64,000 bases of DNA, taken from the NCBI RefSeq assembly GCF_058153355.1, contig NZ_CM177019.1; one strand, given 5' to 3'. Positions within the stretch are counted from its first letter, which is position 1. Each line of letters starts with the position of its first letter. Both the position numbers and the translations under genes were made by a program. Shown piece by piece: positions 10,948 through 11,153 of this stretch. The notes beneath the pieces were generated by a model that saw only the letters and a list, made by a program, of their open reading frames with translations, ran no database searches and had not been told where the DNA came from.

Positions 10948-11153
10948 AAATCGCGGAAGGGATGAAAAAAACAGCGCCTGACGGCGCTGTGTCTGGCATG
11001 CCTGCAATCTGGGAAACCGGGGTAGAAAAAAACTTGCAGGCCATAACAGTATCTACACGTATCCTGCAATATATTGAATTTAAAGGCTTTTGTAGGTCTG
11101 GTAAGGCGTTAAAGCCGCATCCAGTATGACAAATCGCACATTGCTATCTGTCT

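Follow-up and report, generated by a model that had tools for sequence, protein, structure and literature searches.

IS621 is an insertion sequence of the IS110 family that is guided by a bridge RNA and for which a promoter divided over the two element ends was described. Hiraizumi et al. (2024; PMC11208158) placed the -35 box in the right end (RE) and the -10 box in the left end (LE), while the excision step was termed unresolved. It was shown that the RE-LE junction of IS621 reconstitutes a sigma-70 promoter from which the bridge RNA is transcribed (Durrant et al., 2024; PMC11208160). Small RNA-seq of RE-LE plasmids of IS621 and five orthologues revealed a transcript of ~177 nt originating from the predicted sigma-70 promoter, and a 22-bp truncation of the donor, which removes the -35 box, abolished recombination unless the RNA was expressed elsewhere (Durrant et al., 2024; PMC11208160). 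The split promoter belongs to the published model of bridge-RNA recombination, which is now a genome-editing platform.

The principle of a junction promoter (Pjunc) was reported for elements of IS1111 and IS110, with ISPpu9 as an exception (Siddiquee et al., 2024; ISPpu9 and ISPpu10 papers). Pjunc of ISEc11 and ISEc21 (IS1111/IS110), of ISPpu10 and of the IS3, IS21 and IS30 families is likewise assembled upon abutment of the ends in a circle and boosts expression of the transposase. The IS621 clade differs from these other Pjunc elements as its spacer is the donor site recognised by RNA and as the first product is a guide RNA; elements of the IS3/IS30 type, unlike IS621, have DDE transposases and terminal inverted repeats. 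ISPpu9 from Pseudomonas putida, also a member of the IS110 family, resembles IS621 in targeting REPs and in forming circles, but it possesses its own internal promoter and its circle junctions create no new promoter. As ISPpu9 lacks a split promoter, this is a feature of a clade and not a rule of the IS110 family.

Two identical IS621 copies inserted in REPs

The window, i.e., the whole stretch of 64,000 nt that was analysed, contains two copies of IS621 that are mutually 100% identical and placed in inverted orientation:

9775-11054, + strand: IS621-like copy 1, length 1280 bp when the CT core is counted once, placed in a REP between fbaA and mscS (CTTATCAGGCCT / IS / ACA)
38749-40028, - strand: IS621-like copy 2, same sequence as copy 1, in a REP of a REP cluster (BIME) between ygfZ and trhA
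9967-10947, + strand: recombinase gene of copy 1, 326 aa, IS110-type
9789-9966, + strand: bridge RNA of copy 1, 178 nt

The inverted identical arms comprise 9763-11057 and 38746-40040, with the identity of the two copies running 12 nt beyond the left end and 3 nt beyond the right end, because both occupy the same kind of REP (CTTATCAGGCCT / element / ACA). Upon in-silico deletion of 9775-11054 or 38749-40028, the resulting 400-nt empty-site queries matched other E. coli genomes without interruption; the best match for the fbaA-mscS site covered 400/400 positions at 99.5%, and the ygfZ-trhA site was likewise found in one piece. The identical second copy and the empty sites together define the ends at 9775 and 11054 as exact, with one CT core common to element and target. 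This core lies in the REP target ATCAGGCCT/AC, and both copies are flanked by CTTATCAGGCCT and ACA. As is characteristic of IS110/IS621, the insertions need no terminal inverted repeats and show no target duplication beyond the shared CT core. Judged by their sequence, both copies are IS621-type elements of the IS110 family.

Of 5,426 complete E. coli genomes, 2,244 contain copies annotated as IS621, to which the element is 97.6-99.6% identical. No 100% identical copy was found in this collection of complete genomes, the best match being that of strain 2017-02-2CC with 99.6%. The variant has a length of 1280 bp vs. 1279 bp for canonical IS621 and is 97.6% identical to canonical copies. Compared with the canonical copy, no change occurs in the terminal 31 nt of the right end or in the initial 73 nt of the left end. 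Five substitutions upstream of the -35, which extend the A-run from six to seven, and changes in the coding region were found; none of the differences falls in the promoter hexamers or in the spacer.

The recombinase is identical at 322 of 326 residues to the IS621 transposase in PDB entry 8wt6 (chain 8wt6_A), i.e., it carries four amino-acid substitutions. It matches the Pfam families PF01548 and PF02371 (E = 2.2e-24 and 7.5e-26, respectively) and the NCBIfam model NF033542 for IS110 family RNA-guided transposases (253 bits, cutoff 140). The bridge RNA, which has 178 nt vs. the published 177 nt, equals the published wild-type except for three changes at 9848, 9853 and 9855 (+C), one extra base and two substitutions, located in the apical loop of the target-binding stem. 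Its architecture comprises a 5' stem-loop followed by the target-binding loop, with the guide ATCGGGCCT at 9838-9846 and GTAG within 9864-9872, and by the donor-binding loop, with the guide ACAGTATCA within 9910-9923. The fold is predicted at -64 kcal/mol (z = -4.1). The left end thus encodes a non-coding bridge RNA with loops matching target and donor, as known for IS110/IS621. In a search of Rfam 15, no family covered the bridge RNA region.

The split promoter and its conservation

The sequence parts that would form the junction promoter are distributed over both ends of each copy:

9777-9782, + strand: -10 hexamer TATTAT in the left end of copy 1, overlapping the right-donor recognition sequence TGTAT
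11024-11033, + strand: A-tract AGAAAAAAAC directly upstream of the -35, A-rich also in enterobacterial relatives
11034-11039, + strand: -35 hexamer TTGCAG in the right end of copy 1
11040-11054, + strand: right-end part of the spacer, i.e., the variable GCCATA, then the left-donor ACAGTAT and the CT core
40021-40026, - strand: -10 hexamer TATTAT of copy 2
38764-38769, - strand: -35 hexamer TTGCAG of copy 2

The first-pass annotation had placed TTGCAG at 11034-11039 and TATTAT at 9777-9782, where both hexamers are indeed read, and had proposed that joining the right end to the left end results in TTGCAG-17 bp-TATTAT. This geometry is obtained when 11054 is joined to 9775 with one CT core kept: the joint then reads ...AGAAAAAAAC TTGCAG GCCATAACAGTATCT/TG TATTAT CCCTCC A(9789)..., and the spacer of 17 bp is composed of 15 nt from the right end and 2 nt from the left end. 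The arrangement is that of a Pjunc, with the -35 and the -10 in opposite ends, a distance within the range of 16-18 bp once the ends are abutted, and an orientation toward the transposase. Written across the junction, the RE-LE joint of these copies is ...CCATAACAGTATCT/TGTATTATCC..., and the RNA start at 9789, the seventh base after the -10 hexamer, matches the published start of the bridge RNA, AGUGCAGAG. The reconstructed junction of 50 bp is identical to 'AAACTTGCAGGCCATAACAGTATCTTGTATTATCCCTCCAGTGCAGAGAA' in Supplementary Table 1 of Durrant et al. (PMC11208160). Overall, the locus shares with the IS621 described earlier the 50-bp junction, the hexamers, the 17-bp spacer, the 5' end of the RNA, the REP target and the CT core (Durrant et al., PMC11208160; Hiraizumi et al., PMC11208158). 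The A-tract AGAAAAAAAC may act like an UP element. An extended -10 formed by the TG at 9775-9776 was considered and rejected, as this TG abuts the hexamer without the one-base gap (scanner output 'TG_before_second: no').

In the integrated state the right-end -35 and the left-end -10 are separated by about 1.25 kb and face away from each other. At the CT core, the recombinase would connect the two ends, resulting in a circular form in which both halves are placed exactly 17 bp apart, and the rebuilt sigma-70 promoter would transcribe the bridge RNA and then the downstream recombinase gene. The Pjunc spacer is at the same time the donor recombination site (ACAGTAT-CT-TGTAT), and as the spacer is the donor site, the promoter and the recombination substrate are the same stretch of DNA. 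Through such a split promoter, the guide RNA and the recombinase are linked in their expression to the excised element, i.e., to the form competent for transposition. The present analysis establishes the anatomy, the identity to the published junction and the conservation; junction transcription and the failure of the junction when the -35 box is missing come from the literature, and we infer that these two copies form circles in their host. It is very probable that both copies carry the split IS621 promoter that is rebuilt as Pjunc on circularisation and drives bridge RNA and recombinase. The split junction promoter is correct but already published; it is a rediscovery and adds nothing new on the mechanism.

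The hexamers taken alone do not carry this reading. TTGCAG agrees with TTGACA at three of six positions, 17% of the hexamers in the window match as well, and 79 sites of equal hexamer quality at a spacing of 17 bp were counted in the window (1.2 per kb). The consensus scanner, which demands at least 4/6 in each hexamer, would not call the junction. The hexamer match alone is no better than chance, and for this reason the significance of the promoter rests on its position, its conservation and the published experiments. The 79 equally good pairs would fit an explanation in which the hexamers are a chance match, or are conserved only through overlap with the donor site or a stop codon, without any promoter function. 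Against it stand the published transcript mapping and the result of the -35 deletion, both obtained for the identical sequence (Durrant et al., 2024; PMC11208160). The comparison with relatives bears on the same question.

For this comparison 78 loci were fetched, with one genome per species, and a locus was kept if the donor motifs (ACAGTA[TC]CT and CTTGTAT) sufficed to place its two ends, which left 47 loci with 40 distinct junctions. In this sample, protein identity is 69-83% for enterobacteria and about 50-60% for Methylomonas, Janthinobacterium, Dokdonella and others. Across the 40 distinct junctions the following was observed:

-35 position 1: T in 40/40
-35 position 2: T in 39/40
-35 position 3: G in 40/40
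-35 position 4: A in 31/40
-35 position 5: C in 28/40
Spacer bases 1-3: variable
-10, positions not covered by the selection motif: T in 39/40, A in 29/40 and T in 40/40, the last position being the one with 40/40
Spacing between -35 and -10: 17 in 40/40
Bases that directly follow the -10: background level, with about 0.1 bit of information

Hexamers and spacing are thus conserved above the neighbouring positions, and the TTG is found at a fixed distance of 15 nt from the element end. The majority of the distant relatives carry TTGACN, which is nearer to the consensus than TTGCAG of IS621. The mean -35 score was 5.0 bits for the junctions vs. -3.1 bits for what the chromosome offers at this position, calculated with an approximate PWM of Hawley-McClure-type base frequencies that allows a rough ranking only.

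Part of the hexamer conservation could stem from overlapping functions: in the majority of relatives (about 29 of the 40 junctions) the TGA that ends the recombinase gene makes up positions 2-4 of the -35, and the -10 shares bases with the right-donor sequence. However, the -35 begins with a T that does not vary in spite of its third codon position, and the C following the stop is non-coding and nevertheless conserved. Furthermore, the TTG is kept where the stop has moved, as in TTGCGT and TTGCAT, where a TAA stop lies 8 nt from the end, and in IS621 itself, where the stop lies 107 nt upstream. The conserved wobble T, the non-coding C and the TTG retained at shifted stops argue for a promoter constraint that is still at work, and together with the invariant spacing and the published data they render a chance match or mere overlap extremely unlikely. 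The proposal of a sigma-70 promoter that is split over the element ends and aimed at bridge RNA and recombinase accordingly agrees with an identical published junction and with 40 distinct junctions of relatives; from the raw sequence, the first-pass annotation had recovered real regulatory logic.

The right ends of the relatives differ in organisation. Most of the distant relatives (loci L013-L055, e.g., L029 near 2440-2474) show T[TGA]CN at the -35, with a non-coding right end of only about 17 nt. In enterobacterial relatives with TTGC.. at the -35 the stop is lost and the ORF extends to a TAA inside cATAAcag, and in IS621 (10945-11054 in the window) the right end has been extended by about 90 nt and the stop has come to lie earlier. 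As the TGA-containing TTGACN form is found in distant relatives and the stop is shifted in enterobacteria and IS621, the weak -35 of IS621 looks derived. The extended right end of IS621 contains a further feature:

10971-10990 (copy 2: 38813-38832), - strand: GC-rich hairpin followed by a T-run of the minus strand, terminator-like and directed from the right flank into the element

The stem of this hairpin is kept and its loop varies in enterobacterial relatives with a long right end (L001, L004-L007, L010).

Abutted ends were also searched for in assembled sequences. A 300-nt RE+LE query found no abutted RE-LE junction in the 5,426 complete E. coli genomes, in which transient circles are not expected; it retrieved only five records in which two adjacent REPs each hold an IS621 copy, with 90-200 bp between the copies. 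Among metagenome contigs, the exact pattern TTG-N7-TAACAGTATCTTGTATT gave nine matches and no true junction: eight show no homology to the recombinase and are AT-rich chance matches, and the remaining one is a right end beside a target that merely resembles a left end. The absence of assembled junctions is uninformative and does not constitute evidence against circles. In E. coli SCZE5 (L090, prpB-prpC intergenic region, 467-3118) two complete, equally oriented IS621 copies occupy neighbouring REPs at a distance of 93 bp, and E. coli A0 34/86 (L089, 1-1564) contains a degenerate, frameshifted IS621-like copy with TTGCTG as -35, which adjoins IS1397, a REP-targeting insertion sequence.

Possible expression from the integrated copies

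The two copies touch on the question of how an integrated IS621 obtains its first dose of recombinase and bridge RNA. Two features of the chromosomal left flanks are relevant:

9706-9726, + strand: intrinsic terminator hairpin of fbaA, followed by TTTTTTT, -14.1 kcal/mol, upstream of copy 1
40044-40049, - strand: hexamer CTGACG of the host REP, 17 bp upstream of TATTAT of copy 2, candidate hybrid promoter in the integrated state

It had been proposed that in the chromosome neither copy possesses a matching -35, so that expression would depend on read-through from the co-oriented upstream gene, i.e., fbaA or ygfZ. The first part holds for copy 1, where the -35 position is occupied by TGCGCT with a score of -2.7 bits; as this hexamer matches at only two of six positions, the promoter of copy 1 appears to be disrupted in the chromosome. 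It does not hold for copy 2, where the REP supplies CTGACG, matching at 4/6 positions, 17 bp upstream of TATTAT.

The co-orientation of both copies with their upstream genes is real. In a sample of ten distinct E. coli insertion sites, composed of the window copies and the loci L088-L098, the upstream gene was co-oriented at 10/10 sites, including 4/4 sites between co-directional genes; an orientation antisense to the upstream gene was found at none of these four (0/4). REPs are normally located within transcribed 3' regions, which would also fit expression of the integrated element by read-through. However, six of the ten sites are placed between convergent genes, where co-orientation is automatic, and for the informative sites 4/4 corresponds to p = 0.06. 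As evidence for read-through the co-orientation was consequently set aside, the four informative sites being too few to conclude. Moreover, a canonical strong terminator of fbaA and the REP hairpin lie between fbaA and copy 1, the 5' stem-loop of IS621 was reported to lower expression of a downstream reporter as a terminator-like brake (2026 preprint), and the integrated junction of ISPpu10 was reported to act as a terminator blocking read-through (2026 preprint). Taken together, it is unlikely that the integrated copies are expressed by read-through from fbaA or ygfZ.

At both left junctions (9749-9785 and 40018-40063) the REP hairpin is followed by the U-rich start of the element (CUUGUAUUAU), which resembles the terminator reported for the integrated junction of ISPpu10. 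The scanner did not call the REP hairpin with CUUGUAUUAU at these junctions, because the stem contains a bulge.

Alternatively, the promoter may not be fully latent, and some integrated copies including copy 2 may carry a working hybrid promoter composed of CTGACG of the REP and TATTAT of the left end, giving a basal, site-dependent expression of bridge RNA and recombinase. The arrangement CTGACG-17-TATTAT at 40049..40021 matches at 4/6 positions in the -35 and at 9/12 overall and is the only promoter-like site that the scanner flags on this strand in the region; with the approximate PWM, CTGACG scores 3.37 bits vs. 2.85 bits for TTGCAG, i.e., it is at least equal to the -35 of the element itself. 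The same REP variant was found beside three other sampled left ends of IS621 (both prpB-prpC copies and the prpE-codB copy), and an integrated copy would have to be expressed to some extent if its own products carry out the first excision, a point left unresolved by Hiraizumi et al. (PMC11208158). On the other hand, CTGACG lacks the first T of the -35 and has no upstream A-tract, the REP is GC-rich and forms a stable hairpin (-23.6 kcal/mol), and copy 1 has a 2/6 match at the same position. CTGACGCGT is found in only 23 of the 584 listed natural targets containing CTTATCAGGCCT (Durrant Supplementary Data 2). A working hybrid promoter is thus doubtful on the basis of these sequence features.

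A broader reading, that the activity of IS621 may depend on the insertion site since a minority of REPs, those ending in ...GCTGACGCGTCTTATCAGGCCT and including that of copy 2, supply CTGACG 17 bp from the -10, is regarded as quite improbable. If it were true, copies like copy 2 would be basal-expressing 'starter' copies for excision and copies like copy 1 would be silent, and the derived, weak -35 in E. coli (TTGCAG vs. TTGACN in distant relatives) would give greater relative weight to a -35 provided by the host. Basal expression that depends on the site and is driven by a -35 from the REP would be an unlikely and only mildly new lead. As their contexts differ, with a terminator and a poor -35 at copy 1 and a -35-like hexamer supplied by the REP at copy 2, the two copies constitute a natural pair for the question of the first dose.

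Some further observations concern the surroundings of the copies. In L090, the downstream copy has CTGACG-17-TATTAT at its chromosomal left end. Copy 2 of the window occupies the last REP of a cluster of three REPs downstream of ygfZ, and an Rfam match to naRNA4 (CssrE, a REP-derived nucleoid-associated RNA) at 40030-40107, on both strands, abuts its left end. Other small RNA genes in the window, at 24286-24436, 25085-25268 and 35170-35212, are Sib antitoxin RNA, 6S RNA (ssrS) and ES036/CssrF, respectively, and are unrelated to the IS621 copies.
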